Assembly (NCBI GenBank): GCA_047967505.1
Contig: CM106538.1
Source of the DNA: Dipteris shenzhenensis
Lineage: Eukaryota
DNA length: 64,000 nucleotides
Reading direction: 5' to 3' (one strand)
The position numbers and the translations under genes are program-made. The notes under the pieces are model-generated. The model was not told where the DNA came from. It searched no databases and saw only the letters and a list, made by a program, of their open reading frames with translations. Positions 39,813-64,000 of this stretch are shown here, piece after piece (positions within the stretch are counted from its first letter, which is position 1; each line of letters opens with the position of its first letter).

Positions 39813-42800
39813 AATGTGAAGATCCACACTTTTCGAAAATCCAAATGTGTGCAATGCATGCAGAATTTGAATGCCGATTGGCCCTCCAATGGGGAAGAGC
39901 GCCCTCGTGAGAGTACTTGTTTCTTTTTCGATCTACATGCAAGGTGCGAGAGAGATGACGGATGAATTCAATGTGGTAGAGAGAATGCTACATGAGATTT
40001 CCAATGAAAGGGTGATACCCTTTCATTAATGTCCCTTGAGATCACTCAAGTTTCATCTTCCCATTTACACCTACCCTTATCCTATGACCCATATACCTAC
40101 CATTCAATGCACTCTAATGCACCCTTTCCCTTTCCTATTGCCCCTAGGACCTAGACACGTGTGTGCACATCTTTATTACTAATCATTGGCCAATGTTACA
40201 TAGTTTTGACGGTACTATTTGCACCGCTTGATTGATCATAAATACAAACATATAACCGCACCATCAAATTGGCGCCTAACAATAATAAGGTTCTAATGAC
40301 TATTAATTAACTAAATAATCATTTCTCTTGTCATGACACTCCCTCCTGCTTGAATGAGCAGAAGTCCTCGTTTGGATTATTGCTTGTCTCTTCCTCTTAC
40401 GTGCACTTTCTCTTGTTACCTCTGCCATTGCATCGCCTCTTTGTAATCTGCGAGTATTTGTGGAAAATTTGTAAAGAACTCTTCTTCCATTCATTGTGCA
40501 TCCTTAGCTGGCTGGTTTTTAAACTTCAGTAAATCCATATATCTCTTCTTTCCACGAGTACTCTCCTCTTTATGGTACACGATCTGTTCCGGAGTAAGAA
40601 CTTCAGTCCCATCTTCAAGTTCAGGTTCTTCTTGATGCTGAGTATCCAAAAACACAAAAGTATCGCCATGGTATCTCTTCAAATTGCTCACATGAAAGAT
40701 GTTCTTCATACGCCAGTGGGCTGGTAACTTCAGCTCATACGCTCTGGATCCTTCTTCTGGATATAAAGCTGCTGAAGTCTGAAATGGACCATAAAACTTC
40801 GGTGCTAGCTTGACATGTTTTGTACTTCCTCTCACTGACTTGATTCTTCTTTTATCAATCTTCAATAAAACCCAATCACATGGCTACACATATGGCACGT
40901 CCCGGAAATAAGTATCCATCCACGATGGAATAAGCCTCTAAATCTCCGACCTCATTACGTCGAATCTTCCCATAAATGTGAGCGAAGTGCTTGAATATAT
41001 TCAGCCCATTTGGTTGCCCAAAAGATTGAATATATTGAGCCCATTTGATTTGCCTTGAAGAGACAATAGGTTGAGAAAACAAGTGCTTGATACTTTGATG
41101 GTCAGTCTTAATCTTGAAAGCAGAACCATATAAATAGTGCTTCCATAACTTTAGAGCATGAATGACTGCCAATAACTCCTTCTCATATGTGATATATTTC
41201 AATTCAGCCCCTTGAAGTTTTCTACTCTCATAAGCAATGGGATGCCCTCCTTGCATCAACACTGCCCCAATCGAGGTACCAGTCGCATCCGTACAGACAA
41301 CAAAGAACTCTTTGTCCATGTCCGGAAGTGTTAACACTGTTGCAGTCACGAATGTTCTGTTAAGCTCCTCAAAAGCTACTTGGTGAACCTCTCCCCACTC
41401 ATACAAGGAATGCTTCTTCAACAAATCTGTTAGTGGGGAAGCAAGACGTGCAAAATTCTTAATGAATCTGCGATAATAACTACACATCCCTAGGAAGGAT
41501 CTCAGCTCATGTATGTTTTTGGGTATTGGCCATTCAATTATGGCCTTGACCTTTTTAGGGTCAACCCGAATTCCCTCAGCAGACACAATGTGTCCCAAAT
41601 ACTCTATTTCTGTCTTGAAGAACTCACTCTTCTTGGTATTTAGGAACAATCGATCCTTCCTTAGGAGCTCCATCACCTTAGCAAGGTCATCCTTATGCTC
41701 TTCCTCATTCTGGCTGAACACTAAAATGTCGTCAAAAAAGACTATGACAAATTTTCCCAAGTAGGGTCGCAAAACCCTTCTCATTAGCCTACTAGGAGTG
41801 GCTAGAGCATTAGTTAGGCCAAAAGGCATGACCAAAAACTCATAATGTCCAGTGAGAGTGCGAAAAGCAGTCTTATGTTCATCCCCAGCTTTCATACGAA
41901 GTTGATGATAACTAGATTTCAAATCCAATTTGCTAAAAACTTTAGCACCTTTAAGCATATCCAATAAATCATCCACTCTTGGAATCGGATAATGGTTCTT
42001 AATCGTAAGTTTATTTAAAGCAAGGTAATCTATACACATACGATATGATTCATCCTTCTTGTTAACCAATAATACAGGTGCTCCAAATGGAGAAGTGCTT
42101 GGTCGAATCAGGCCTTTTTGCAACAGATCTTCAATTTGTTTTTCTACCTCCTCCATTTCTATCCTGTTCATCCTGTATGGGGCTCTACATGGAGGAGAAG
42201 CTCCTGGCTCTAAGTCTATGGCATGATCATCTTCTCTCTCCATAGGCAATTCGAATGAGTCATCTCTTGAAAATCGATCCTCATAAGCTCTAAGGAACTC
42301 ATTTCTCTTCCGATCTTCTTTTGAGATATGAAGATCTCGTGAATCCCGTATATACACAAGATTACAATCTACCCCTCTTTTTACCAATCTTTTCGCTTGG
42401 GTAGGAGTAATCAATGGAATTGTATACATGTCTTGATCCCCTACGATCCTTATGTACAAAGCAACAATGATGAGTATGAGGATGAATAGTAGGGTTAAAA
42501 TCATACCACCATGGTTTACCTAGAATCATGTCAACGTCTTGTAAAGGGGCTACTAGAAAATCCCTTCGATCTCTATATTTTTGTATACGAAAAGGAATAT
42601 TCCGTACTATGGATGTGTCTTCTTCATTGTGTTCCCTAAAAGCTCCTGAAAGCGACATGTTTTTTATAGGTTCTGGTTTAAGATGGAGTAATTTTGCCAA
42701 TCTATCACTTACTAAGTCATAATTACATCCATCATCTAGGAGAACCACTATTCTCTGTGCATTCACGAATCCATACACCTTAAAAAGATCATGAGGCCCA

Positions 42801-43436
42801 AAGGTATTGGCTGAATGGACAATAGTCACAGTAGATTTCGAGGGTGACAAGGTAGAAGCCTCACCCTCCTGCTTGGATCCCTTGGCTTTCCCTTTCACTG
42901 AATTCGTCTTGGCAATCTTAGCCAAGAGAACGGGACACTTATGCCATACGTGCCCTGGCTTATGTTTCTTACACCCGAAACATTTTCCTTCCTTCATCAA
43001 CTTCCTCTTCTCCTCGTCAGTCATAGAAGGAAATGGCACCCATCCAGGACGTGATTGGCTATTCACGTTCCTTACAAGAGCTTTACCCTTCCCTTTTTTA
43101 TTCTTAAACCGGTTTGGTTTCCTAAAAGTGGGTATATTGTTGGTCTTAGATGATGACCCATACTCCTTATTGAAGGGTTTACGAGGATTCAATTTTCTCT
43201 CGGCTATTTCAGACAACTTAGTGAGGTCCTTAAGCGTGGTCGGGTTAAACATTTTAACCTCGTACCTTACTTTTGGGCTTAAAGCTGCTAAATACTTCTT
43301 TCTCCTATCTTCCTCACTCTTTTCGAGTAACTCTAGAGAGAGTTTCCAAAATCTGGCTGTAAAATCTGCATTACTCTCATTATCGAATTGCCTAAACCTC
43401 TCCCAAGGAAAGGTTAGGTTCTCTTCATGCCTCGGT

Positions 43437-46400
43437 TGTTAGAATTATAGATATAATTCAGCAGTGACCAATGTAATTTAATAAGCTAGTTAGGGGCACT
43501 TTTCCCTCTTTAAGAGGTTTTTTCCCCTAACCGCAGTTAGTTCACTAACTATGGTTAGTGACTACTAAGGTTTTGTCACTACGACAAAACCTTATCTCTC
43601 ACTCATTGAGTTGTACTCTACACACTCTTCTATTGCAACTCAGCTTTCGGCTTCCAAGCTTTCAGCTCTCACTCTCTTGCTGTCTCTCACTGCCCATTTT
43701 CTCACATTTGGTATCAGAGCATTTGATCCCGCTCCCTGCTTCTTCCGTGTTCAGCTCCAGCCTATAGCTTGCCGTACTGCTCCAGCTGCATCCGTACCTT
43801 CCGTTCATGCAGACTCGAAATTCGTACCGTACCTGCTCGTCGTACATCGCGTACCGTACCTATCATAACTTACCTGCGTAAGTACCGTAACATCCGTACA
43901 TCGCGTCCGTATCGTACCGTACCTGTCGTACCATACCGTCCGTACAGCTCGCAGAGGTTGTCCGTACATCACGTCCGTACTTTGCCGTACCAGTCGTACA
44001 GCTCGCTGTCTTCGTCCGTACCAGCACATGCGTCATCCGTACTGTCAGCCGTATAGTACTTCCTTACTGTCAGCCGTACAGTACTTCCGTACAGCAGGTA
44101 GTCCTTTGATTTCGTACAGCAGAACCTCGCAGGTGATCTTTGGCAGGCGCATTTTGCAGACAGCCATTGTTTGGCTCAGTTTTTTGGGAGTACATTTGGG
44201 GCATTTTGTTTGTTGCAGACACTGCAATCATTTTGTAGCTTCGGAGCTACACTTGGAGCAAACATTGCAGATTTGGTCTGAAATTTGGGGCTTTCTGCTG
44301 AAATTGCAAAATTTGGGGCTTTCAGTACTTCTGCCCCTATCTGGTTGCAATTTAAAGCTCGAAATTTGGGGCTTTCAGTTCTGCAGTACAATTTCTTGAA
44401 GAAATTTGGGGATTTTGTAATTACACTGCAATCTCGCAGTGAAATTTGGGGCTTTTGCAAACAGAGCGCAATTCTTGCAACATTTTGGGCTTTTGATCAA
44501 TTTGCCCCTTTCCGGTTGCAATTTCAGGCCTATTTTGGGGCTTTTGTGTTGGGAGAGCAATTTCTGGAGTTTTCAGTTCATACTGCCTTTCTTGGAGTGT
44601 TTTGCAGCACTTTTGGCATTTTGGAGAGTTTTTGATGCTTGGACAGATTTCTGACAGTGCAAGTACAGAAATCTGAGTTGCATTTACAGCAAGTACTTGG
44701 CTGTGTTTTTTTTTTGGGAGTTGTGCATTTCATTCCCAGTAAGGGAATTCAGTTTTGTATCTACTTAAATCTCTTTCTCAGATATGGCCCAGCAAAATCA
44801 GAATGACTTCCAGTTCGGTGGTCTTTCACAGGAAGACAAGTTGGATGGTACCAACTACTCCCTCTGGAGTTTTATGGTACGCAATATTCTGATTTCTCGC
44901 AATTTATGGGATTATGTGAATGGGGGTGAGATCCGACCAGCAGGTATGGCACCTAATACCCCTCCTCAGCAAGGAGGTGGAAGAGGTCGTGCACAAGGGG
45001 CAGCTGCAGAACAAGTTGTTGGTGCAGCTATAGCCACTACTGCAGAGCAGAAGAGATGGGATTCACGGGATGCCTTAGCTTTGTCATGCATCTCTCTTTC
45101 AGTGAAAAGATTTATCATTCCGCATATCCGGTCGAGTAAGACCTCCAAGGCAGCGTGGGATATTTTAGAAAGCATGTATGCAGCCCGGAATGATGCAAGG
45201 GTATCTTTCTTGAAAAGAGAGTTAAGTAATACACATATGGAAGAGGGTGACTCCATGTCAGTCCACCTCACAAAGCTTCAGGATCTCAGAGAGCAATTGT
45301 TAAATATAGATGAAATTATTCCTGATTCAGAGATGATTACAACCACTCTGAATTCTCTTCCTGAGTCTTATCTCAGCTTTCATACCTCGCTGAACTTATC
45401 ATTGAGGGGGGGTGCAAATCCTCTCACTTTTCATGAGTTGATAGGACTTCTGCTTCAGGAAGAGCAGACCAGGAAAAACTTGGCTTCACGTGCAGGTGAA
45501 CAAGCCATGCTCTCAAAGTTTAAATAAAAAACAAAGGGACAGGCAAAGACATCAGTAAATCAGCCTTCCAGTGGGTCAGGACAGCCTTCACAAAAGGCTA
45601 AAAATGATGCAAGTAAGCCCAAGAAGAAGGGTTTTTGTCACTACTGCAAAAAGCCAGGTCATCACATTGCAGAATGCAGGAAAAGGCTTGCAAAAGAGAA
45701 GAAAAACAGCTCCGGTATGGCTGTTTCAGATTCAGCTCCTCATGCATCTGACAGTGGGGATGCTGCAGCCAACTTTGTTGGACAGGATTATGCCTTTTTA
45801 TCTTGCATTTCAGATTCTAGGCTGGCTGCTCCAGATGCTCGGGATAGTACAGCCACTTGCAGTGATGATACATATGCATTTTTGACTTGCAGTTATGACT
45901 CTTCTACGGATGCATTTGCTTTCAGTGTCAATGAAACACTGAACACTTGGTATTTTGACAGCGGTGCATCCAAGCACATCACTTCTAGGAAGTGTCTTTT
46001 TACTTCCTTGCATCCACCTCCCGTTGGTAAGAAAGTCACTTGTGCCAACAACTCATCATATTTAGTGCGTGGCACAGGAGATGTTGAGCTCACTGCCATT
46101 GATGGCTCAATTTTCAGACTTTCAGATGTCTTATATGTGCCTGGTATAACCAAAAATCTTCTTTCAGTGTCCACTCTTAACAGAGCTGGATTTCAGGTCA
46201 TCTTTGAGGATGACAAATGTGCTGTCCGAGACAGGGAAGATGACTATGCCTTAAGGTTATCTGGTACTCTGTTGCGTGGGCTTTTTCAGCTGGATCTTTT
46301 TGAGAAAAGAGCAGCCCATGCTCTTGAGTTTCTACCCCTACAGCTGCCATGCAGAATGCAGAATTATGGCATGCCCGATATGGCCACATGCATTACAACA

Positions 46401-49397
46401 GCTTGATGACACTTCAGAAGTATTCCATTGTCTTGCATTGCCACCTCTTGAGATACCTCCACCACATGCCTGTGAAGGGTGCATTTTGGGCAAGATGCAT
46501 TGATTTCCCTTCAAGAAGGATGGTTTAGTTAAAGCTGTCCGCAAATTACCGCTTATACACAGTGATGTCTGTGGTCCCATGAGGACTTCATCATTGGGCG
46601 GTCATCTCTACTTCGTTACATTTATTGATGATTACTCCAATTTCACTTGGGTTTTTGGGCTGAAACGCAAATCAGAAGTATTCACGGTGTTTAAACACTT
46701 TTCAGCCATGGTTGAAAATGAAACGGGACTCAAGATACAGACATTGCGCACAGATAGAGGTGGGGAATACTTGTCTGCAGAATTTGATGCTTTTCTGAAA
46801 GGCAAAGGTATTGTGCATCAGCTCACAGTCACAGGCTGACCCCTCAGCAAAATGGCAAAGCTGAGAGGAAAAATAGAACTCTCATGGAGATGGACAAATG
46901 TATGCCGAAAAGCAAACACATGCCTCACAAATTCTGGCTTAAGGGTTTGATGTGTGCCAATTACATTTTGAATCGGGCTCCCACTAAGGCTTTAAAAACA
47001 AAAACTCCTTATGAGGTCTGGAATGATAGAAAGCCTTTAGTGGATCAGTTCCGAGTCTTTGGATGCCTTGCTTATGCTCATGTGCCAGTTGAATTTAGAC
47101 ACAAGTTGTCAGATAAAGCCATCAAGTGCATATTTGTTGGGTACAGTGCAGAAAGCAAGGGGTACCGTCTCTACAATCCTGCTACACGCAAGATCAAGAT
47201 CTAATATTTTCTGAAAATTCAGCTCACACTCAGGCTAAATTTCAAATGCCTTCGTCTTCAGAGGATGTCTTTGAGGGGTTGCTACCCATTGCCTTGGGTT
47301 CCCCTGCTGATTTTTCTGATGCAAATCAGAATTTACAGCAACCTCCAAATGCTTTAGTTCCGCCACAGGATGTCTTGGCCCCTCCACAGGCAGTGGAACA
47401 TGCAAGAAATTGCAGACATACATGCAGCAAAAACAGTCCCAAACTGGCTGTTACAGACTCTCAGGGAGAGTAAAATTGATGCTCCGTTACTTGGCAGGAC
47501 TCGCAGTGCAGCAAGGCACATGGAAGGTGCTAATTCAGTGGAATCAGCATATGCAGGTACTCTTCTTGATGAGGAGGAACCTGCCACATTCGAAGAGGCA
47601 AAGGACAATGTGCATTGGATGAATGCCATGCACGATGAGTTGCAGTCCATTGCAAAAAATCAGACTTGGGATGTGGGTAAACATGCCATTGGCACACGAT
47701 GGGTTTTCAAGGTCAAACGGAAGCCAGATGGCTCCATTGACAGATGTAAGGCAATGCTGGTTGCTAAAGGCTATGCTCAGAAAAAGGGCATAGATTATGA
47801 GGAGACATTCGCTCCTACATCCCGGATGACCACCATCCGATCAGTTATTGCAATGGCTGCACATTTTGAGTGGAATGTTCATTAGTTGGACATAAAAACA
47901 GCCTTCTTAAATGGGGACTTGCTGGAAGAGGTGTATGTCAAACAACCTCCGGGCTTTGAAATTACAGCAAATGCACTTCAAGTATGCAAGCTCAACAAAG
48001 CTTTATATGGGCTGAAACAGGCCCCTCGTGCATGGTATGCCAAGATCCATGCCTTTTTGACCAGCAAGGGGCTGCACAATAGTCCTACTGAGAGCACCCT
48101 CTACATCAAGATGGATGGGGGGGAAATTTTAGTCATCCTTCTTTATGTCGATGACTTACTGCTCACAGGGTCCAATGAAGACAAAATTGCAGATTTCAAA
48201 GCTGATTTGCAGACCAACTTTGACATGTCAGATTTGGGGCTGCTTCACTTTTATTTGGGGATCCAGTTCTCTCATGAGAGACGTGGCACTGTTATGTCTC
48301 AATCCAAGTATGTTCAAAAACTCTTGGACAGATTTAACATGCATGATTGTAAGCCCATAGCCACTCCCATGGAGCCGGGGCTGAAACTCACAATGCATGA
48401 TGCAGGAGAATTAGTTGATGCCACACTTTACAGTCAGGCTGTTGGATGCCTCATATATCTCTGCAACACTAGACTTGATATTCAGTTTGCAGTATCTCAA
48501 GTGAGCAGGTACATGCACATCCCAAAAACTATGCATTGGCAGGCAGTTAAGCGCATCTTCCGTTATTTGCAGGGCACGAAGTCTTTTGGCTTGCTATTTC
48601 CCAGGGGGGGTGACTTGCAGATGCATGCCCACAGTGATTCAGATTGGGCTGGTGATTATGACACTAGGCAGTCCACTAGTGGCAATTGTTTCTTTTTGGG
48701 TAAATCTTGCATTTCCTGGCTGAGCAAGAAACAATCTACAGTGGCTACCTCATCATGTGAAGCTGAGTACAGGGCAGCTTTCAGAGCAACAGTTGAATGT
48801 GTCTGGCTGCGACGTCTATTTGCTGATCTTCATCTGTCTTTGGATGGTCCTTCTCCAATTCTCATTGATAGTCAGAGTGCCATTGCAGTGGCAAAGAATC
48901 TAGTGTTTCATGCTCGCACGAAGCACATTGAGGTTCACTATCACTACGTTAGAGAGAAGTTGCATGCAGGAGAGATCAGTATGATCTTTGTGTCCACACA
49001 TGACAACGTTGCAGATATTTTCACCAAAGCACTACCACGTGAAAAGTTTGAGGCATTTCGCAGTGCCCTGAACTTATATCCGTTTGGTGATTGATCAGCC
49101 TTGTACATGACATTGGCACTGCAGGGGGATGTTAGAATTATAGATATAATTCAGCAGTGACCAATGTAATTTAATAAGCTAGTTAGGGGCACTTTTCCCT
49201 CTTTAAGAGGTTTTTCCCCCTAACCGTAGTTAGTTCACTAACTATGGTTAGTGACTACTAAGGTTTTGTCACTAGGACAAAACCTTATCTCACTCATTGA
49301 GTTGTACTCTACACACTCTTCTATTGCAACTCAGCTTTCAGCTTCCAAGCTTTCATCTCTCACTCTTTTGCTCTCTCTCACTGTCCATTTTCTCACA
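43437..49397 (+). mobile_element. Full-length Ty1/copia element (Copia-C) inserted into the gypsy gag
   Basis: LTRs 43437-43706 and 49130-49397 (about 8 substitutions plus a 2-bp indel), TSD TCGGT, PBS at 43709-43720, PPT before 49130. The host gag reads KATFMPP|RHEENL across the insertion. Confidence 0.97.
44784..49094 (+). pseudogene. Copia-C gag-pol with several stops and frameshifts
   Basis: DKLDGTNYSLWS, CHYCKKPGHHIAEC, WYFDSGASKH, IHSDVCGP, LRTDRGGEY, LLYVDD, SDSDWAG, HARTKHIEVHYH. Confidence 0.95.
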
Positions 49398-50645: not shown

Positions 50646-51900
50646 TGTTAGGCTTCATAGCGCTTAGGAAAATAACCCTTCCTAGTACCTGCAACAATTA
50701 ATTAAAGCGCACCACCATGGCACCTATTATTTGTTAGCGCTTTGCATGCAAATAATACACTGTGGACTAATTCTAGTCACGGTGGGCGTCCCCATTGAAC
50801 ACGTGCACACATAACAAATATATAAATATATTTATTATTTGGTTGACCGGAGTCAACGCTCTTGATCATAATTAAGGGTCTTTGACCAAGGGTTGAGGCG
50901 CCTTAACTATAGCCAAGTCTCTCCAACCGAAGTTGGCACATCTTGGGTAACCGCAGTTAACCTTCTTGGTATAAACCAAGTCTTCCTGATCGAAATCAGG
51001 CTCACTTGACCGAAGTGAAGTATCTTTGACCGTAGTCATTTCTTTGACCAATAGAAAAACTCTTTTGACCATAATTAACCTAGATGGAGAACTCTTTAAT
51101 TATGATCGCATTATCACATCTAGCTTCGTGTTCTTTAATCTCTGCTTGAATATCAGACTTACTTGCTTTGGTGTCGACTTCCACAGTCACTTGCTTCTTA
51201 GCAGTTTGTACTTCAATGTGAACAAGACCTTTGACTGTAGAGACTAGCTGCGGAGTAGGGGGGGAAATCCTTACAAGATTTTACAGCCTCTTCAATCATT
51301 GCCTGCTTATCAGGCCCTTCTAGAATATCAAGTCGAGCCTTTACTTTTACCAGTTCCAATCGTAGCTCTCTCACTACCTACTGCGGATAAACAATCAGAT
51401 CTTGTTGCCCAAGGATGGGTCGTTTTGAGCCTTCTTGTTGGTAATTTTGTGCATATATAGAGGGTGTCATGGCTGCAACTGTAGAGTACCGAGTCCTGAT
51501 GGAGGTCGAAGGGGGACTTGGAGAGGGTAGGCCAATCCACAATTGGCTGTCTATTGAACCCCCTAGCTTAACCTAACTCCCGGGTTGGGTTGGGGATTTA
51601 GCCCAACTCAAGGTTAGGGTTAGCGTGTTTGTTGCTAGCTGAGGTAACTGCTGGCTGAGGCAAAGGGCTGACAGGCTGCGCGGAGAGGTACGGACGGAGA
51701 GGTATGGGGAGGTACGTGTTGTTGATGGAGAGGTACGGGCTGCTGATGGGTTGTACGGAGAGGTACGGGCTGCTGATGGGCTGGTACGGGCTACTGACGG
51801 AGAGGTGCGGGCTGTTGTACGGAGGGTTACGGACCTGCTGTACGGGGGGGAGAGAGAGAGAGAGAGAGATGTATTAACGTCTACGGGAGGCCTCGTGGGC
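50646..51900 (-). mobile_element. Probable partial or solo LTR of another family
   Basis: Ends CCTAACA on the minus strand at 50646, has no long ORF, and contains a TTGACC cluster, an about 21-bp CCGTAC-containing repeat and a (CT)n tract. It is cut off by the RTEX tail. Confidence 0.4.
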
Positions 51901-52585
51901 CTATGAGAAAGAAAGAAAGAAAGAAAGTTTAAAGTCTTCGGGAGACCGTGAAGGTCTATGAGACTAAAGATAACTGATACAATGAGCATAACGGTGGTGG
52001 TCTCAAAACGGGCCAACCAACCGTTTCTACAAAAAAGAGGTTATGAAGGACTATGTGTCTAGTCCTGATACAAAAAATATGTGTCTACCTCCAGATGATA
52101 CAAAGAAGAAGAAGGGGGGGGGCACAGAAAAGTGGGGCAGAGGGGGGAGATACAGTAGTATACATGTGCAGGTGGTGATCGTCAGAGACCAATCATAGAG
52201 GGGCTGTCAAATGGGAAGTCAGAAAAAACCCTGCGATAGATAATTGGCCTCTGACGTCACTCGGCCTAGTCGAGCTCGATCGTCGGGGGCGGCGGGTGGC
52301 CCTGTGGATGAGGGCAACGGTAACCCCAGTGGGGCGGGCCGAGAGCAGAGACGAGATGTCATGGACCTGGATGTGTGAGTCTGTCCGCTGACGCAGCTGT
52401 CGTGACTTTGGCTCTCGCTCACGTCCGCGTCGTCGGCTAGACTGAGAAGAGGTATCCTGTGGCTGAAAGAAGTCAGTGATAGGCCGCTGGGTGTCCTCAC
52501 GCTGTGTGTGCTGCTCGTGTCGCCGTGCTCGGAGAGAAGTATCTCGGTAGCGGGTGATCTCATGTAAGAAAGCGGCAAGGCACCG

Positions 52586-55500
52586 CTAATTCGGGAATTG
52601 TAGCATGTGTGGGAGGGAGCCGAATCCGTTGCGGAAGAGGCAGTGGTATCGGCCTCGAATGGCATAATAGATAGGACATCTGAAAGCAAAATGCTCCTCC
52701 GACTCGATCTCCTGTAAGTTGCAAAGTGGGCAAAGGCGGTCCTCTCGTGGGATACCCTCTGCGCGTCCACTCTCGATCGGTAATCGGTGTGACGAGACCC
52801 TAAACTGAGCGAGGGAGATCCGGAGCGTATGTGGTAGATGAAGTTGTGTGTAACCCGGAGGTGTGATGAAGCCCTCCTGTGAGATCTGGAGGCAGTGTCG
52901 GCGGTAGAAGTTGAGCTTCACAGGAAGCTCGGAGTGAAGAAACCATGTCCGCCAGGTGTGGAGCTGGAGCAGATTCGCCCGAATGAGCCGGTTGACCTCT
53001 TGGTCAGTGGGGGAGAGAGGAGATGGTGGAGCATCGAGGCTGTACTGAAAAGGAGGCAACCGGTCTAAGTCGAGGCCCAGCCGGGTGAACCAATTGGAAA
53101 GACGACTATACCAGCATCGCTGGTCCCCATCAACGGATAAGGCCATAGAGGAGGATAGGGCTAACCAAGGTAGGCGGAGGCGACCGTCAGCGGAGGAGCC
53201 AAAATCCCTGACTCTGTGGAGGTAGGTGATAGCTTGAAAAGCCGCATCAAGCTGTAGGGGTGAGGCGCCGAACTCTGCTAGAATGATCTGGTGTGGTACC
53301 GATGGTTTGCTACGGATCATCCGAGCAAACATCAGTATCTGCAGGCGCTCAACTCGACTCCCCACCAAGGGCTACCATACATGCCTGCTGGGCGGACCAA
53401 AGAAAAAAAAAGGAGAGACTTGGTCCGCGGGTCCTGGAAGTGGGAGTGGTAGCACTGTCGCTCCAGCCTGGCAAGAGCGGCTTATCCCCAGTTGATCCTG
53501 GCCTACATGGCCGGGCGCATCGTGAAGATCGGGCCTGAGAAGACAACGCCCGAGTATGTGTAGGAGTCAACTATCTCAACAAGGTCGCCGGCGAAGGGGA
53601 ACTGCTCTCGGTGCATAGTGGGTCTGGAAGTGTTGAAGATCATCACCTTGGTTTTCCCAAGGTTGACCTTTAAGTCATGTGTATCACAGAAGGCCTGAAG
53701 TCCATCCAAGTGTCGCTGAAGACCAGTAGCAGAAGAGGATAGTAGTACTACATCGTCTGCGTATAGGAGAATCTGGATGGCAGTCTCCGCAAGAGAGCAG
53801 CCTGCACCTCCGAGTGTCCTGATGGTGGTCTCGAGCTCGTTGATGTAGAGGTCAAATAGAGTCGGTGACAAGGGACATCCTTGTTTGACTCCGATAGTGC
53901 TCGTGATCTCTGGGGTCCAGCTGGTGCCAATCCTGACGTGCCCCGTCACCCGCTTTAGAGAGCTACTACTGCCTAGATAATCGCCGAGTCGTAGCCTAAC
54001 TCCTGCAGACGTCTGATGAGTCGGGCGCGGGGAACGGTGTCGAATGCCTTGCGGAAATCCACAAAGCAACAATATACTCTCTGTCTCCTGTGTCTGGCCT
54101 CCTCAATGATCCCTCTAAGTGTAAAAATGTGATCGTAAGTCGAGTGATCCGTTCTGAAGCCGGCCTGTCCGGATGCCCTGAGCCCCTGTATCTCTGCGCG
54201 AGCACTGACCTCGCCTTCTAACACTGATGCATAGATCTTGGACATAACATGTCCAACCATGATGGTCCTGTAATTCCCTGGATCCATGGGATCTCCTGCT
54301 TTGTGGATGGGTGTGATAGTGTTTAGGGTCCAGGCTCTGGGGAACCCGTGACAGACAGCTTCATTGAACAGCGTTGCCAGGATGGGGGCTAGAGTTTTGA
54401 TGCCATAGGCAACAAACTCTGTGCATAGGCCCTCATGATCCTTAGCTCGACCGTTATGAAGCTTATGTGCTGCGTGGGTGACTCCCTGGGTTGTGAAGAG
54501 GATACAAGAATTGGGGCGGGGGGTGGCTAAGAGGTCGGGAGGGGGCTGATCAGGGATATCATAGAGTGTGCCTGCGTAGGTGTGCCAGAGGGAAGTGTCC
54601 GTGAGGGGGGAGGGGGATCGGCGTTCTAGGAATTTCCTCCAGAAATCCTTGGAGTTGCTACTAAACAGAATGTTCAGTAGCGTATCCTCATTCTGGCGCA
54701 GGAAGGCTAGCTTCTTGCGACGGACTAGTCGACGATAATCCCTGGTGAGACGTGGGTTGGCCCTAGCGTTTCGCTGGGTTCTGAGTCGGAGTGTGCGGCG
54801 TAATGCTTTGCACTCGTCATCATACCATCTGTTGCAAGGGGTAGAGCCAGCGGGTGGAGGGCGGGTGGACCGGGCGGTGGAAGGAAAGATGTGGCGGGCT
54901 GCATTGTGAAGGGAGTGGGTGATAAGGGTGGCTCAGTGATCTAGAGAGGGTATGGTGCCTATGTGTCTGAGGAGGGAGGCTAGGTGGGCTGAGTAATCAG
55001 GTGAGAGGTTATGATCGAAGTGTATATTATGATAGGTAGTATAGTGCGGGGTGTGGCTGGGAGGGGCTCGGGACGCAAGTATATGAAAGAAAAGGTAAGT
55101 GTGATCGGCTCCTGGGGGTGAGGGTGTAGTGCGGAAGTCAGTGATCTATGGGGCTAAAGCAGGAGATCCCAAAATATAGTCGACGACACTGGCTCCTCCG
55201 CCATGTGGGAAACATGTGAAACCAGAGGAGGCAGGCCACCGATCTAGTCCATTGTAGATGACCAGATCATGTATACGTCCAAGGTCCAAAAGAGCCTGCC
55301 CATACCCAATAACGGGAGCGCGACTGTCAGCCGAGGAGCGAGGGAAGCCCGAGTCCTCTGTGTCCATCTCAGGTAATAGGACCGGATCTGAGTGGAAATC
55401 CAGGAGTGATGTCTGACGTGCACCTGTCCTTGCGTTGAAATCCCCGACTAGGAGGACCTCTCCGCGTCTGGAGAACTCCACAATGTCTGAGTAGAGATCT

Positions 55501-55937
55501 AGATGGGGGGATACCCCCGTATCCTCGCGAAGCATCCGTGCGAAATGTGACGTCTCAGGAGGAAAATAGCAGACTGCAATAAAGAGGTCGCGTGTGGAGG
55601 GGCATCGGAATCGGAGCCATAGGTAATGGGCATGGGCATCCCATCTAACCACGGATGTCAAGCTCGTGAGCGCTGAGCGAAGGAGTACTGCAACTCCGCC
55701 TGACCCTCGGACCCCCCCGGTATATCTGGTCTCCTCACGGAATACTGACTCCCAGGTATAGCCATTGACCAAGGGGAGAGGGCGCTCGGGGCTCTCATGT
55801 GTCTCTGTATAGAAAGCGATGTCGCGTCCAGTGTATGACTCTGAGAAGTTCCCAGGGTCATACGAGAGGGTACCATTACAGTTCCATACGGTGCATGCCA
55901 AGGGTACTGTGTGCTGAGTCTGAGTCTCATAGACCAT
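52586..55937 (-). pseudogene. RTEX ORF2 (endonuclease and reverse transcriptase), interrupted
   Basis: VWNCNG, YTETH, GGVAVL, GDFNAR, VVDY, ADH (endonuclease); NYRTI, QAGFR, FVDFRKAFD, GVKQGCPLSP, LYADD (RT). In-frame stops and frameshifts are present. Confidence 0.92.
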
Positions 55938-55943
55938 GTCTCC

Positions 55944-56924
55944 CTATTGGGGGGGGGAGTCTGCTACCATGTCTGGAGTACCTGGTGGGGCTCGGCGGCG
56001 GGGGCCAACTAACAGGCGGCCATCTCGGACGACAGCCCACTTCCCCTCCTGACGGGCTACATCTCGCTGCTGAAGCAGGGTGCGCCGCTCTTCCACCTGC
56101 ATAGGTGTGAGATCCTCATCCATGAAGATAGTAGGGTGGTCCCATAGTGTAGCACGCTGCCTGAGAGCTGCAAGTCGAGCCTGAGTATCCCTGAATCGGA
56201 TGATGAGTGGCTGTGGGCGCGTGGGATCCCGTCCTGTGTGCCATGCATGCTCGATCCCATGCTCGACGAGGCCAAGGGTAGAGGTCACAAAAGCAGTCGT
56301 GTCCGCTAAGGGGGTGAGTGAATCTGGGCGGGGGATACCTCGTACTCGGATGTTGAGAGCCTTACTGGCCCTCTGTTCCTGCTCGGCGATGGTGGCTGAG
56401 ACTGCTGCTTTGGGTGCCCGTCTCGCAACGTCCACCCATTTGGTAGTCTCCGCAATAGCAGTCTGGATAGTAGCGATCCGCTCCTCTACCTCTGGTGTAG
56501 TGCGCGGGGCCGCTGTGACTGTAGCAGTGAGAGAGACAACCTCCTGACGGAAAAGAGTGATCTCCTGGCGCATGCTCTGAATAAGCTGGTCTTGTGCTAC
56601 GGTGTGATCCCGTAGTCGATGTAGCTCCGCAAAGATGTAATCTATCGTCTCAGGTGGGACCCGGGGGGGTGCGAACTGGGACATGGCGTATGGCTGTGGA
56701 GGCGTGGGCGATAGGCTAGCTGTATATGGCAGAGGAGTGGAGAAAGGCTGCTGGGTGAGGGGAAGGGGGGACATAAGAGTGGTGGAGACAGAAGGAAGCT
56801 GTGTGGGGGGTGAGGGACTGTGACCCTCTCCTGTGGGGGGCAGGTTGAGTGGTACAGTGGTGGGGGGGGCAGTGATTGGAGTAGAGATGATGGCTACGGG
56901 AGAAGGAACTGCATTGGTGTCCAT
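55944..56924 (-). CDS. RTEX ORF1, 326 aa (coiled coil plus L1/CR1-type RRM-CTD-like region), intact
   Basis: Pro/Thr-rich N-terminus, heptad region, NIRVRGIP...PLIIRF...IFMDEDLT..VEERR...GKWAVVRDGRL. Confidence 0.85.
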   Translation of the reverse strand: MDTNAVPSPVAIISTPITAPPTTVPLNLPPTGEGHSPSPPTQLPSVSTTLMSPLPLTQQPFSTPLPYTASLSPTPPQPYAMSQFAPPRVPPETIDYIFAELHRLRDHTVAQDQLIQSMRQEITLFRQEVVSLTATVTAAPRTTPEVEERIATIQTAIAETTKWVDVARRAPKAAVSATIAEQEQRASKALNIRVRGIPRPDSLTPLADTTAFVTSTLGLVEHGIEHAWHTGRDPTRPQPLIIRFRDTQARLAALRQRATLWDHPTIFMDEDLTPMQVEERRTLLQQRDVARQEGKWAVVRDGRLLVGPRRRAPPGTPDMVADSPPQ

Positions 56925-57169
56925 TGCACCCTATGTTTTCAGGGCTGGTTGGCTGTCAATTGCTAATCCACTCGTGGAGATGCGCTTTGTGATCTCTCCC
57001 ACAATTGGCTTCGGAGACTGTTCGGGTTTGTGGGCCATTGTAGGACTTGTTCAAGTGCACGATTTCCAGGGGAGGCAGATCTTGTGCAGCATTGCTGTAG
57101 GGATGCGTAGGCCTGCGCAAGGCCAGTGGCAAGCCAATGCTTGCAGCAGACAAGGGCCCTCAGACCACG

Positions 57170-58050
57170 GGAAGGCTGCGGGAGGGTGTGGGGCAGAGGC
57201 TACGGGAGGGGGGGTGGTGCAGAGGTTGCGGGAGGGGGGGGAGTAGAGTGGAGCTACGGGAGGGGGGGGGCAGAGTGGAGCTACGGGAGGGGGGCAGAGT
57301 AGAGCTACAGGAGAGGGGGGGGCTGAGCGACGAGGGAGGGGGAGGCTGAGCGACGAGGGGGAGGGGGCTGAGCGACGGGGGGGGGGGGGGGCTGAGCGAC
57401 GAGGGGGGGGGAGGGGGCTGAGTGGCGAGGGGGGGGGGGCTGAGCGGCGAGAGAGGGGGAGGCTGAGCGACAAGGGAGGGTGCTGAGCGGCGGTGAGGGG
57501 GAGGGGGCTGAGCGGCGGTGAGGGGGAGGGGGCTGAGCGGCGGTGAGGGGAGGGGGCTGAGCGGCGAGGGGAGGAGAGACGACGAGGGGAGGAGCGAGGG
57601 GAGCGGCGAGGGAGGGGAGCGACGAGCGAGGGGAGCGGCGAGGGAGAGCGACGAGGGGGGGCGGCGAGGGAGGGAGCGACGAGGGAGAACGGCGAGGGGG
57701 CGGCGAGGGGGCGTCGAGGGAGGGTAGTGGGAGGGAGGGTAGCGGGAGGGAGGGTAGCAGCGGGAGGGAGGGTAGAGGGAGAGCGGCGAGGGGGCGTCGA
57801 GGGAGGGGGCGGCGAGGGGGCGTCGAGGGAGGGTAGCGGGAGGGAGGGTAGCTGCGGGAGGGAGGGGGCGGCGAGGGAGGGTAGCGGGAGGGAGGGTAGC
57901 AGCGGGAGGGAGGGGGCGGCGAGAGAGAGAGAGAGAGACGGGGGGTAGAGGCGGGGGTAGGGAGCGGGTAGAGGAGAGGGGTGTAGAGGCGGGGGGGAGG
58001 GTAGTGGCGAAGGAGGGGTAGAGGCGGGGGGAGGGTGTAGAGGCGGGGGA
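57170..58050. repeat. G-rich minisatellite array (about 20-bp units) in the RTEX 5' UTR
   Basis: Repeated gggggctgagcg(a/g)cgagggg and gggagggtagcgggag units. Confidence 0.85.
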
Positions 58051-58199
58051 GAGAAAATGCAGAACCCAAAAGGTAACTCATACAAGCCACTAAGGGCTGA
58101 AGCAAAGGGCTCACTAAGGCCCTTGCTGAAAGCTAAAGTGCAAAGCTAGTGAACAACATAGTAACCATGGCAACCTCTGTCTCCCTGATGTGCAGTCTC

Positions 58200-58810
58200 C
58201 ATATGATCTAACCTGGTGTAGATATGTGATGCTCTGAAAGGTTGCATCTAGCTGGAGTGGAGAAGCACCAAGCTCGGCCTGAATGATGTGATGTGGCTTG
58301 AATGATGTGATGTGGTACAGACGGTTTCCCCCGGATCATCCGTGAGAGCATGAGGATCTACAAGCGCTCCACCCGTGTCAACTCTATCTCTGACATGTCA
58401 GGCCCCCAACAAGGGCTGTCATACATACCGGCTGGTCAGACCAAGGAGTCGAAGAGAAGAGCCTTGGTCCGAGGGTCCTGGAAGTGGGAGTGAAAGCACT
58501 GTCTCTCTAGCCGAGCCAGTGAGGCGTATCCCCTGCTCAGTCTGGCGTGCATCGCTAGTCTCATCGTGAAGATCGGGCAGGAGAAGATGACCCCTAAGTA
58601 AGTGTATGAGGATACGATCTCAACTGGTGACCCACCCAAAGTAAAAGTAAACTGCTTCCGTTGCATGTTTGCTCGAGAGGTGTTAAAGATCATGACCTTG
58701 GTCTTGCCAGGGTTGACCTCCAAATCATGGGATAAACAAAAATCCTGCAGTGCATCCAGGTGTCGCTGGAGCCCCTCGGGTGTGGACGACAAGAGTATGG
58801 CACTCCCAGA
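58200..58810 (-). mobile_element. Older RTEX-type RT C-terminal fragment
   Basis: LLSSTPEGLQRHLDALQDFC...VNPGKTKVMIFN...SYTYLGVIF...HFQDPRTKALLFDSLV. Confidence 0.85.
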
Positions 58811-58829: not shown

Positions 58830-60026
58830 AATCCTAAATTCGTGTATAGTCTCTGCAAAGCACCTCTGGTGGTTCAATGCTTGGTGGTTTATCAGTTCAT
58901 TGGGAAAGGCTTCTATCAAGCGTCAATTAAGAATATGGCGAGAGGGAGTGGTTGGTAATTACAGAGGTAATCTGGTGTATGCCATACCTTGGAGTGCGGA
59001 TTTCACTCCTGAGGGGGATTTATAATCAGAATGCCCAGTATGGATTCAATTTCCTAACATTAATGAGCTTCTCGTCGTTGAGCTGGAGAAGATTGCCTCG
59101 CTCCTTGGGAGAGTGTTATACGTGCCACCAGTTTAGGTAAAAAAATCTTCCCTCGAGAGTTTGTCCCTTGTGGGATAGGAGGAAGGACCCTCCTGAAGGC
59201 TTGGAGTTGCTACTTCCAAATGGGTGGAATGCGTTTGTGGAAGTGCGCTTTAGTAACTTTCTTGAAGCCTGTTATTTGTGTAGATCATTATGCCACTTTG
59301 TGCAGGATTTTCCAACTTGACATGCAGAAGTATATGATGTTTGGATGCAAGAGAAAACGAGGAAGGACAGTCTGCATGAAGGAGTTCTGGTCATGTCGAA
59401 CACCATTGCTCAGGGAAATGCTTCATAATCAACTTCTAAGGGAATACATGGAAGAGCGAGCAGTAGATCTTCCGAGAACTAAATGTGAGCAAACTAATAA
59501 AGATGGTAGCAAAGGCAATGGTAATCAATTACCAAGAGAGGGAAGGATCTTGTTTCTGGATTGGTGGAAAGTGCTCTTGATAGAGCCCAGGCAAATGAGA
59601 AGAGCCTCGAGCTAGTGAAGGTGGTATGGCGGAGAGGTCTAAAAAAGTGGAGTCTATTCGTGTTGCCAAAAACAAGGCTTAGAAGGGTAGCTTTGTGAAT
59701 ATTAGAGGCATATGTCCGGCTTGGAAGAAAATATATGTTAAAAAGCTTGTTCGTCAAAAGAATCCATCGGTGCTGGTTTTGCAGGAGCTTAAAGTAGGTA
59801 AAGCGGGGCTTGATGATTGGATGGTGCTGTGTTACCACCATGTGTTTTGCAATTGTCCGTTCAATGGTAGAGGAGGTATGGCTCTCTTGGTGTCGGCAAA
59901 GTACTTTGTTGTTTCTATTGTAAAGGACAATGCAAGTGAATACTTGGTGGTCGAGTTAGAAACTCAAGGCCATAAGTTCTTTGTTGCTTCTATGTATGCC
60001 CCGAGTCTTCCTCACAAAGGCTTCCA
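58830..60026 (+). mobile_element. Decayed L1-clade LINE (ORF1 and endonuclease start)
   Basis: PWSADF, CPVWIQFP...IASLLGRVL, NIRG...VLVLQELK...GGMALLV...SMYAP. Confidence 0.7.
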
Positions 60027-60370
60027 ATGAAGCTGAGTTTCTACAGAGATTACTGTCTTCGCATTTCGGAGGAGGGATTCATCACATCACCGGGGTACAC
60101 TGAGCTTCATATGCCTCACTCACTACGGATCTGCATCGGACCATTTCGGGTATCATCACACCGCATCCGCATAGAGAGCCGCAGAGCAGAGGGGATTCCT
60201 AGGGAGCATCGCTTATGCATATTGTGCGACTGTTAGGAGGTTGAGTCGGAGGAGCATTTTATTTTCAGGTGCCCAGTGTACTACGAGATCCGAGGTTGCT
60301 ACCACTGCCTCTTCAGAGACCGGCTCCGGGCTCCTTTCCAGATTCCTCGCCTACCCAGATCAGACCAAGT
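60027..60370 (+). mobile_element. RTEX-type ORF2 C-terminal fragment
   Basis: KLSFYRDYCLRISEEGFITSPGY...FRVSSHRIRIESRRAEGIPREHRLCILC. Confidence 0.85.
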
Positions 60371-60763: not shown

Positions 60764-61030
60764 GAAAGAAAGAAAGAAAGAAAGAAAGTTTATCAAAGTC
60801 TTTGGAAGACCAATGGGTCTATGAGACTGTGAAAAAACTGGTACAAACAAGTTGTGGTGGTGGAGCTATTAAACAAGCATCCACACCAATGCAAAATGCA
60901 AAAAATGCAGAATGGTAGTACTAAGTCCTAAGTACAACATAGTCATGTCGGTAGTCGACTGTATATCAATCTCATCATTATCATCATCATCAGGACATCG
61001 AGGTGGATGAGGCAATGGGGGCATGAAGTT
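60764..61030 (-). mobile_element. Short RTEX-family 3' end with (TTTC)n tail
   Basis: (GAAA)n followed by gtctttggaagaccaatgggtctatgagact, matching the 51907 terminus. Confidence 0.7.
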
Positions 61031-63172: not shown

Positions 63173-63787
63173 GTAGACTCTTCACTTGCTTTCAATATTT
63201 AGTTATAGTTACAGAAGAATACTGATAACAAATTTGGGTTCAAAGCAAAGATGTGTTAATTGGAATTGAATCTGGAATGAATGCAATGGCAATATCCCTT
63301 TAAGATTTTCCAAGGGGTTAATGATTTATCATTTCTAAACCCCTTTAAGATTGTCGAAGGGGTTTCAAAGGGTTAATAATTAGTCATTTATGAACCCCAA
63401 AGTAACAAACGTCATCATTTGAACAAACAAGCATTTGGAGCATCCTCATGGTACAAGCTTTATGAGGTCTCAGGTCAAGGAGAGCCTACATTGGCTTGGT
63501 TTAGACCTGTTCCATCTTCGTCTTCAATGCTAGGGTTGGTTGCCTTGATTTGTGCTAGAGTCTCACTGTACGTATCCTCCTCATTTTGAGCTAGCCTTCA
63601 GGGAAGCCTCCTATTCTGATCTTCAATGGCTTTGTACTCCTTAATCTCAGACTGGATGTCCGTTTTTTGCAGCCCATAGCTGAAACTAACCCCTAGGGTC
63701 GTGCTGGGGGTGGGAAGAGACCGGGGACCTGAGTGGAGAGACTGCACAAGGACTTGAGCGGGGAATTAAGCTAGGCGGAGCTCGGGA

Positions 63788-64000
63788 GAAAGAAAGAAAG
63801 AAAGAAATTTTATTAGAGTCTTCGGAAGACCGATGGGTCTATGAGACTGAAAGAAAACCTGATACAAATCACAGTAAGGGTGGAGCTACTGAAGTCTGAA
63901 ATGAGCATCATCACCCGTGCTGAACCCTAAGTCTGATCATACATAATCAAATACATCTGGATGTAACCACCGTGACTCCCATGGGATGTATCCCGGCTCT
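63788..64000 (-). mobile_element. RTEX-family 3' end with (TTTC)n tail, running off the window
   Basis: (GAAA)n followed by gtcttcggaagaccgatgggtctatgagact. Confidence 0.75.

Follow-up and report, generated by a model that had tools for sequence, protein, structure and literature searches.

How the second protein of a bicistronic retrotransposon RNA is translated, and how that protein then finds its own RNA, are long-standing questions, and work on them has concentrated almost wholly on human L1 and SART1. They are raised by a long interspersed nuclear element (LINE) on the minus strand of the 64,000-nucleotide (nt) stretch of Dipteris shenzhenensis DNA analysed here (assembly GCA_047967505.1, contig CM106538.1; hereafter the window), in which one frame holds the first open reading frame (ORF1; 56924-55947), a UAG stop codon, two further codons and then the AUG of ORF2 (55937-55935). 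The original prediction, made from the letters of the window, proposed that the sequence at this junction pairs with the 3' end of the same RNA about 4 kb downstream and that this pairing could license ORF2 translation. The comparative evidence presented below points, at roughly even odds (probability about 0.5), to programmed readthrough of the ORF1 stop, stimulated by a long-range helix that would start 8 nt past the stop and compete with a hairpin at the 3' end of the element.

Complementarity of junction and 3' end

Read on the minus strand, the junction (55946-55923) is UAG GGAGAC AUG GUCUAUGAGACU, and the 3' end of the element (51965-51940) is AGUCUCAUAGACC UUCACG GUCUCCC, followed by 12 nt (GAAGACUUUAAA) and by the (CUUU)n microsatellite tail (51927-51906) that forms the extreme 3' end. 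Divided by the helix that it could form, the junction reads UAG-GGAGACAU-GGUCUAUGAGACU, that is, the ORF1 stop codon (55946-55944), which is in frame with ORF2 and is the proposed site of readthrough, an 8-nt spacer (55943-55936; +1 to +8, where +n denotes the nth nt after the stop) and a proximal 13-mer (55935-55923; +9 to +21) that begins with the G of the ORF2 start codon. This 13-mer is the exact reverse complement of the distal 13-mer AGUCUCAUAGACC (51965-51953; positions t1 to t13). A second strand, GGGAGAC (55944-55938), made up of the last base of the stop and bases of the spacer, is likewise fully complementary to GUCUCCC (51946-51940), which amounts to 13 + 7 base pairs (bp) in all.

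Both sites can also fold locally, the junction as AGAC-AUG-GUCU, with its 5' arm supplied by the spacer, and the 3' end as AGACC-UUCAC-GGUCU. The distal 13-mer is at the same time the 5' half of the local 3' hairpin, to which it contributes an outer strand AGUCU (51965-51961) and the inner arm AGACC (51957-51953); the 3' half of this 3' element (51952-51933) comprises the loop UUCAC (51952-51948), the inner arm GGUCU (51947-51943), the GUCUCCC of the second helix (51946-51940) and the outer strand AGACU (51937-51933). Sequences, coordinates, both helices and both local hairpins had been put forward in the original prediction, and all were recovered on re-reading the minus strand. In the window copy the predicted energy of the duplex is -36.3 kcal/mol, versus -7.4 and -9.8 kcal/mol for the local folds.

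When up to one mismatch is allowed, four occurrences of the 13-mer are found in the window where 0.09 would be expected, and none of 100 shuffles has as many. The sites are the junction, where the match is on the plus strand and which is the only junction within the window, and three minus-strand LINE 3' ends (51953-51965, 60816-60828 and 63836-63848). The last two, already noted in the prediction, belong to diverged, 5'-truncated copies, the second with its 3' end at 60767-60846, hairpin AGACC-CAUU-GGUCU and a (CUUU)n tail, and the third with its 3' end at 63786-63867, hairpin AGACC-CAUC-GGUCU and a microsatellite tail; in both the second strand reads GGUCUUCC, which would pair with GGGAGAC through one G-U, as had been anticipated.

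Evidence for a probable readthrough of the ORF1 stop codon

An alignment of ORF2 N-termini scanned against metagenome contigs retrieved 77 loci with 23-50% amino-acid identity. Of the near clade, 20 rows have sequence upstream of the stop (the window copy and 19 metagenome loci); the sequence of L010 starts only at the stop. The position-by-position counts given below are based on 18 distinct junctions. Viral contigs yielded no match by protein scan or by pattern scan, and genome contigs none by protein scan; a degenerate pattern of the 3' motif did match genome contigs 35 times, always in bacterial or archaeal sequence and without a tail, matches that we read as chance because about 65 were estimated to arise in that way.

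In all 20 near-clade rows the ORF2 frame runs upstream across a single stop into the conserved C-terminus of ORF1 (..YRDGR..), the in-frame upstream continuation being only 9 codons long in L020, and at least 100 in-frame upstream codons were present in 20 of the 34 rows listed. The nucleotides that follow the stop go with the stop codon: UGA is followed by CGG in 16 of 17 loci and by CGA in the remaining one, and the near-clade UAG stops are followed by G in 4/4 loci. A more distant outgroup (L024, L025, L029, L030, L031, L049, L050, L037 and L043; about 33% identity in the APE domain) again has ORF1 in frame, with a length of 289-302 amino acids (aa) in six of the nine loci, and carries UAG-CAA-UYN in all nine (UUA, UUC or UCA as the last codon), seven of them fitting CAR-YYA. 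Published leaky stops fall into type I, UAG-CAR-YYA; type II, UGA followed by CGG or CUA, in many cases with a stem-loop located 6-12 nt downstream; and type III, the gammaretroviral UAG with a purine-rich octamer and a pseudoknot (PMC11166343). The contexts of the LINE group (UGA-CGG, UAG-G and outgroup UAG-CAA-UYN) are leaky ones in these terms, and its ORFs lie in frame, separated by one stop, with a coding signature right after it. In the tree of APE domains UGA-CGG appears in two separate clades, and the window copy, with UAG-GGA, is sister to one of them (support 90/89), so that stop codon and context have changed together at least twice.

The resemblance to type II and type III signals extends from the UGA-CGG of 16 of the 17 UGA loci and the UAG-GGAGACAU of the window copy to the 8-nt spacer, a spacing described for both types (PMC11166343). 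Unlike those signals, the LINE has no predicted local stem-loop or pseudoknot, and the partner in its proposed helix is located at a distance of about 4 kb or, in one subgroup, at +424. The outgroup UAG-CAA-UUA, -UUC or -UCA is the tobamovirus-type hexanucleotide readthrough signal.

ORF2 might instead be reached by termination-reinitiation, or by independent initiation, at the AUG located 6 nt past an ordinary stop. Termination-reinitiation helped by downstream structure is described for SART1, whose UAAUG coupling needs a structure downstream of the stop, and an unconventional form of it for human L1 (PMC5972666), and an in-frame AUG does stand at +7 to +9 in the window copy, L007/L008 and L009. 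Like SART1 and L1, the LINE studied here would make a little ORF2 product from one ORF1-ORF2 RNA; those elements, however, restart at an AUG and release separate proteins, whereas in this group the AUG at ORF2 codon 3 is found in 3/18 distinct junctions and missing from the other 15, and five lineages (L001, L002, L014, L019 and L021) have no AUG in frame ahead of the WNCNG strand that opens the endonuclease fold, which begins 13-25 codons past the stop. Reinitiation would not require the frame shared by ORF1 and ORF2 in all near-clade rows. The stop contexts, too, correspond to leaky signals already described, and they vary in step with the stop codon. Initiation at this AUG is, in our judgement, improbable; the single in-frame stop, the leaky contexts and the poorly conserved AUG favour readthrough, and comparison of the loci indicates that ORF2 of this LINE group is quite probably expressed by readthrough as an ORF1-ORF2 fusion. 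Of the two routes through which the original prediction had linked ORF2 translation to the pairing, readthrough is therefore the one that the relatives support, and reinitiation is the one that they do not. For annotators this is a reason not to insist on an AUG for ORF2 and to take an in-frame ORF1-stop-ORF2 arrangement as functional rather than broken.

Two other accounts of the in-frame stop were rejected. A reassigned genetic code does not fit, given that UGA and UAG both occupy the site and that the intact ORFs of 1241-1249 aa contain none, and neither does an intron spanning the stop, given the lack of indels and of splice-like motifs in +1 to +21. Farther away, L057 has ORF1 and ORF2 in different frames and marks the limit of the in-frame arrangement. 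In L027 (114-160) the junction is UAA-CAA-AUA, with a palindrome, GGGGGGCCCCGG, 12 nt later, and may represent another readthrough arrangement.

Conservation at the RNA level after the stop

Immediately after the stop it is the third codon positions that are constrained: +9, +12, +15 and +18 are kept in 17, 18, 18 and 18 of the 18 distinct junctions. Second codon positions +8, +14 and +17 vary, and the encoded peptides change accordingly from lineage to lineage (MVYET, ETYGT, AHVT, AAYET, AACGT, PTSET, TTYET). Conservation ends abruptly at +21, no indel occurs in +1 to +21 of any of the 18 junctions, and the conserved block coincides exactly with the 13-mer, a pattern by which the 13-mer is conserved at the RNA level. 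When RNAalifold was applied to 14 junctions over 150 nt, only a 3-bp hairpin that overlaps the start of the 13-mer was predicted (columns 5-7 with 13-15; U-A/C-G/U-G), with no local partner for the rest of the 13-mer. Predicted conserved local structure is confined to this small hairpin, and the proposed partner of the helix-forming 13-mer, which starts 8 nt after the stop, is distant.

Long-range complementarity in relatives

Four lineages have both ends on one contig, namely the window copy, L001, L008 and L011, which are less than 76% identical to one another or not alignable at the nucleotide level. In all four the best or equal-best complement of the junction 13-mer is found at +3819 to +3978, directly before the tail. 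The 13 positions form 13 Watson-Crick (WC) pairs without G-U or mismatch in the window copy, 11 WC and 2 G-U pairs without mismatch in L001, 12 WC pairs and 1 mismatch without G-U in L008, and 10 WC pairs, 1 G-U and 2 mismatches in L011. Mock 13-mers, taken in the window copy from the ORF2 body and scored against the 3'-terminal 163 nt, reached the observed score in 0/3678, 0/3519, 0/3590 and 131/3548 cases, respectively, and mock 45-nt windows in 0/242, 0/232, 0/236 and 25/234. The gain of the long-range form over the local folds on cofolding was -19.5, -12.9, -9.8 and just -1.1 kcal/mol, a comparison of duplex and local folding of the kind that the original prediction had called for. The 3'-end match is thus present in 4/4 lineages and stands above every mock 13-mer in three of them, the same three (window copy, L001 and L008) in which an unbiased duplex scan placed the 3' end first. 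A further, cross-locus hint comes from L032, whose 3' motif would pair with all 13 bases of the L014 junction (11 WC, 2 G-U), L014 being, at 73% identity, the closest of its relatives for which a junction is available.

The second helix behaves differently. In the cofold structures of the window copy, L001 and L008 it joins the 8-nt spacer to the hairpin's 3' arm and measures 7 bp, 6 bp (with a bulge) and 3 bp, respectively; what persists is the swapping of arms rather than the sequence. The two-helix pairing proposed for the window copy therefore extends to the relatives as far as the 13-mer helix is concerned (four lineages, one of them weak), whereas the sequence of the 7-bp helix does not, short arm swaps taking its place.

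It could be argued that the match is an accident of history, a functionless inverted partial duplicate of the 3' end that landed at an ancestral junction, all the more so as inverted 13-nt matches separated by any distance are numerous in 64 kb and this one was picked after the fact. The match has nonetheless been retained where the surrounding nucleotides are saturated, with compensatory changes and synonymous-site conservation, and 0 of about 3500 mocks equalled it in each of three lineages. An accident of this kind, already disfavoured, is scarcely credible, and on these sequence controls the complementarity is real and not due to chance.

Free variation of the junction motif without compensation, which the original prediction had named as evidence that would tell against it, is not what near relatives display: the 13-mer is conserved, and four of its 13 pairs have changed on both sides (+10:t12 G-C/A-U, +11:t11 U-A/C-G, +13:t9 U-A/C-G and +21:t1 U-A/A-U), each junction pairing best with its own class of 3' motif. 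Part of this pattern would also be expected if the two sites never paired in vivo and merely kept the same small hairpin and flank for one bound protein (ORF1p or ORF2p), or if the junction were a linear readthrough context. The sites indeed share core stems (GAC/GUC in the window copy, GGU/ACC vs GGU/GCC in L001 and GGC/GCC in L008), which explains the covariation at +10 and +11, and 4 kb is a long distance for a 13-bp helix. The flanks, however, are reverse-complementary and not identical, the 8 nt located 3' of the junction hairpin matching the 8 nt located 5' of the 3' hairpin; +13:t9 and +21:t1, which change on both sides, lie outside the shared stem; +14 to +16 (RUG) are conserved opposite a conserved CAU (t6-t8), while the corresponding spacer in the 3' half varies freely (CCCGA, UUUGA, UAGA, UUUAA); and in L008 the G at t9 weakens the local pair to a G-U but provides a G-C with the junction. 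A common protein-binding hairpin, or a linear context, at two sites that do not pair is for these reasons distinctly unlikely, and long-range pairing of junction and 3' end remains the reading pursued here.

In the L003 group (11 loci: L003-L007, L008, L009, L012, L013, L020 and L022) a second complement of the junction is located much closer, at +403 to +424 inside ORF2 (L008: 1550-1562), in a subgroup-specific insertion (..HGPSPY). It offers 10 contiguous WC pairs and shows one compensatory change at a third codon position, A opposite junction U in ten loci and U opposite junction A in L004 (U-A and A-U as junction-site pairs). Across the group 90.4% of the cells of this helix are paired, and a single both-sided change in one sequence was reached by 57 of 500 shuffles. 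The data are no more than suggestive; the subgroup may use this nearer site, or both.

The 3' hairpin

Every 3' end that was found (three in the window, L001, L008/L067, L011, L032 and outgroup L029 and L030) shares a common architecture with an outer stem GUCU/AGAC, an inner stem RGRYC/GGYCU, a 4-7-nt loop, about 10 nt and then a microsatellite tail; L031 has no recognisable 3' end. Compensatory changes support the hairpin at t11:a3 (A-U/G-C), in the outer stem of L030 (U-A/C-G) and in the inner stem of L076 (C-G/U-A). Stem-loops of this position are known from LINEs of the stringent type, such as UnaL2 of eel and ZfL2 of zebrafish (PMC1636434, PMC4176376), and from a monocot L1 lineage (PMC3472496). 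As in the stringent-type elements, a conserved hairpin immediately precedes a microsatellite tail in the present group, its stem shows compensatory changes, and 5'-truncated copies keep it. In the available portions of the sources the stringent-type hairpins are described solely as protein-recognition sites, and no junction pairing is reported for them. In our group the local hairpin occupies t2-t5 and t9-t13, bases also used by the long-range helix; the mutually exclusive folding that the original prediction had suggested for the 3' end is thus borne out at the level of structure prediction, with compensatory changes behind the hairpin itself.

A natural control is provided by L029 and L030, which carry the UAG-CAA signal and retain a homologous 3' hairpin, there followed by an (AUC)n tail, but show no complement of the junction (63/194 and 103/197 mock windows, respectively, reached the score of the true site).

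A candidate switch coupling translation to the 3' end

From this evidence we infer that readthrough occurs, that the helix forms in vivo and that the helix stimulates readthrough. A ribosome with the ORF1 stop in its A site would meet, at the mRNA entrance, a helix starting 8 nt downstream, in which the 13-nt element is paired with the 5' half of the RNA's own 3'-terminal hairpin, 3.8-4.0 kb farther on. Such a helix would exclude both the junction hairpin and the 3' hairpin, the latter being the presumed recognition site of the reverse transcriptase, and it would form only on RNAs with an intact 3' end, since the 3'-terminal hairpin supplies one of its strands with its 5' half. Readthrough by a small proportion of ribosomes would produce the ORF1-ORF2 fusion at a low, Gag-Pol-like ratio, in which the LINE would resemble type II and type III signals. 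The passing ribosome would melt the helix, the 3' hairpin could refold, and the new enzyme would find itself beside a hairpin to bind; a nascent enzyme placed next to the hairpin of its own RNA would favour cis preference.

The closest known parallel is found in tombusviruses. In carnation Italian ringspot virus, proximal (PRTE) and distal (DRTE) readthrough elements have been described (Cimino et al. 2011, PMC3234231): the element just past the stop must pair over about 3.5 kb with a 3'-terminal replication structure, which has mutually exclusive folds and serves the polymerase, and the roles proposed for this pairing are the culling of truncated genomes, cis preference and the coordination of translation with copying. 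The LINE likewise has a leaky stop followed by an element complementary to a far 3'-terminal structure with competing folds. It differs in being a nuclear retrotransposon known from sequence and not a plus-strand RNA virus, which makes it similar in its proposed working and not a member of the viral class. Its proximal element is no large stem-loop but 13 nt placed 8 nt past the stop beside a hairpin of 3-4 bp, its stops are UGA or UAG, and its distal partner is the 5' half of a LINE hairpin adjoining a microsatellite tail. The comparison supports a kind of mechanism that is known, in a host, a LINE, in which it would be unexpected. It is tempting to go further and to suppose that the whole group makes the fusion by readthrough, one clade being gated by the switch of about 4 kb and its sister clade using the linear UAG-CAA-UUA instead, and that the switch is a convergent reinvention of the tombusvirus strategy; this joint proposal we advance tentatively, as falling somewhat short of an even chance.

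The helix might serve a different step even if readthrough is real. It could circularise the RNA for the assembly of ribonucleoprotein particles, mask the 3' hairpin or the stop region, or act as a repressor or as a timer between translation and reverse transcription, with the leaky contexts alone setting the level of readthrough. UGA-CGG and UAG-G are leaky by themselves (PMC11166343), the outgroup has a linear signal and does without the pairing, the tombusvirus pairing also down-regulates replication (PMC3234231), and the helix would sequester the 5' half of a hairpin reportedly bound by the enzymes of stringent LINEs (PMC4176376, PMC1636434). Two observations speak for stimulation of readthrough instead. 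In every lineage the helix would begin at the same point, 8 nt past the stop, and +1 to +21 are free of indels in the 18 distinct junctions, a fixed spacing that is expected for a ribosome-proximal stimulator and is unneeded for mere circularisation; and the pairing is lost exactly in the lineages that have the strong hexanucleotide signal. A role confined to another step appears unlikely to us, if still deserving of attention.

Several points weigh against a long-range helix that stimulates readthrough. The proposal draws on comparative sequence from three independent lineages and one weak case. That case, L011, has a p of about 0.04-0.1, shows no long-range helix in its minimum-energy structure, and its 3' end is outside the top five of the unbiased duplex scan. 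The 3' motifs of L001 and L011 are near-identical, and swapping them scores above the true assignment of junctions to 3' ends, which ranks second of 24 permutations; with only three independent classes possessing both ends, this permutation test has little power. Positions t9-t13 also pair within the local 3' hairpin, so that the covariation at +10 and +11 would be equally expected if the sites merely kept the same stem. When the 3'-terminal 60 nt of the window copy were compared by RNAduplex with 60-nt windows of the element, the junction windows ranked 1-3 (-42.8), but shuffled bodies gave -35.1 +/- 2.9 with a minimum of -43.7, and as at least 1 of 60 shuffled bodies reached the observed value, the scan is too noisy as a significance test and not decisive. 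The +424 complement implies that the 3' end need not be the sole partner in the L003 group, and one member of that group, L006, carries no 3' motif anywhere in its contig although its 1241-aa ORF2 is intact. The copy in the window is itself dead, its ORF2 being interrupted by in-frame stops and frameshifts. Finally, among the 40 of 924 variant rows listed for its family none falls inside 51940-51965 or 55923-55946, and nothing firm on conservation of the motifs within the family follows from that number.

Should the proposed switch be real, it would let a retrotransposon proof-read its templates for an intact 3' end and would give cis preference a physical basis. The comparative evidence would point to a LINE solution different from those of L1 and SART1, a Gag-Pol-like readthrough, and to a testable RNA mechanism through which synthesis of the enzyme would be linked to a template 3' end that is both intact and near; long-range RNA-stimulated recoding would be extended from plant RNA viruses to cellular retroelements. 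A recoding review mentions non-LTR (long terminal repeat) elements, in its available portions, only for the frameshifting of HeT-A and the separate start of TART (PMC5009743). The literature searched, with subscription journals, older plant LINE papers and supplements outside its range, contained no description of readthrough or of junction-3' pairing in LINEs, in agreement with the original prediction, for which the pairing was not known to have been described in LINEs. An in-frame stop between the ORFs of plant LINEs may have been remarked upon before.

The element, its relatives and its surroundings

The element is an APE-RT (reverse transcriptase) LINE with an ORF1. ORF1 (P0001; 56924-55947, minus strand) encodes 326 aa with a proline-rich N-terminus, a probable coiled coil and a C-terminal motif (..VVRDGRLLV..) common to relatives; it has no relative in the PDB, no Pfam family was detected in the window copy or in six relatives, and its Atlas neighbours were uninformative. 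ORF2 (55937-52100, minus strand) encodes endonuclease, reverse transcriptase and a Cys-His tail in a broken copy whose pieces are APE (55937-55149) and RT (54932-53976 and 54102-53506). Pfam gives only Exo_endo_phos (3.5e-08) and RVT_1 (3.2e-09 and 8.1e-18), besides a weak zf-RVT-like tail, and the PDB matches of the RT are generic (R2, 2e-24; L1 ORF2p, 6e-22). The closest named relative of ORF2 is from a fern, with 36% identity. Rfam had nothing in 51800-57200 at E values up to 1. The clade label RTEX, under which the element was originally presented, is tentative; a microsatellite tail is compatible with it but not diagnostic, green-algal RTEX families ending in microsatellites and algal L1 families fitting as well (PMC3472496, Table 1).

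Public runs of at least four coded organisms, as well as air metagenomes, contain the family of the window copy in great abundance, with 38865, 154, 2223 and 3135 contigs matching it (80% likeness) in runs X1, X2, X4 and X8, respectively. Differences between the window copy and the contigs of its family in 51900-56000 are mostly transitions, with A>G (133), G>A (146), C>T (65) and T>C (61) in run X1 against 6-27 of each transversion; at many of the sites listed nearly all family contigs differ from the window copy, as expected of an old, decayed copy. Among the relatives L011 has likewise decayed: a stop interrupts its ORF2, and its ORF1 is short. L008 (307-4872), by comparison, is apparently intact, with an ORF1 of 272 aa, one UGA, an ORF2 of 1249 aa, the 3' hairpin and a (CUUU)n tail, and the coverage of about 103-fold at which its contig was assembled suggests that the family is young and possibly active.

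Arrays of tandem repeats adjoin ORF1 on its upstream side, in units of about 24-27 nt at 57184-58053 of the window and of 57 nt in L031 (146-1019), and by analogy with mouse L1 they may be monomer-type repeats of a 5' untranslated region or promoter; a 344-aa 'ORF' at 57051-58085 without Pfam family is probably an artefact of these repeats. Two more fragments of related LINE RTs (about 70% identity), one of them inverted, are found at 58296-58774 and 60020-60314, separate from the studied element. The surroundings are those of a repeat-rich, probably plant genome. Much of the window is filled by LTR elements of the copia type (Pol_BBD, gag_pre-integrs, rve, RVT_2, Retrotran_gag_2) and the gypsy type (RVT_1, RT_RNaseH), at 3575-5931, 40876-43438 and 44769-49094; the neighbourhood of the LINE is a nest of copia and gypsy types.

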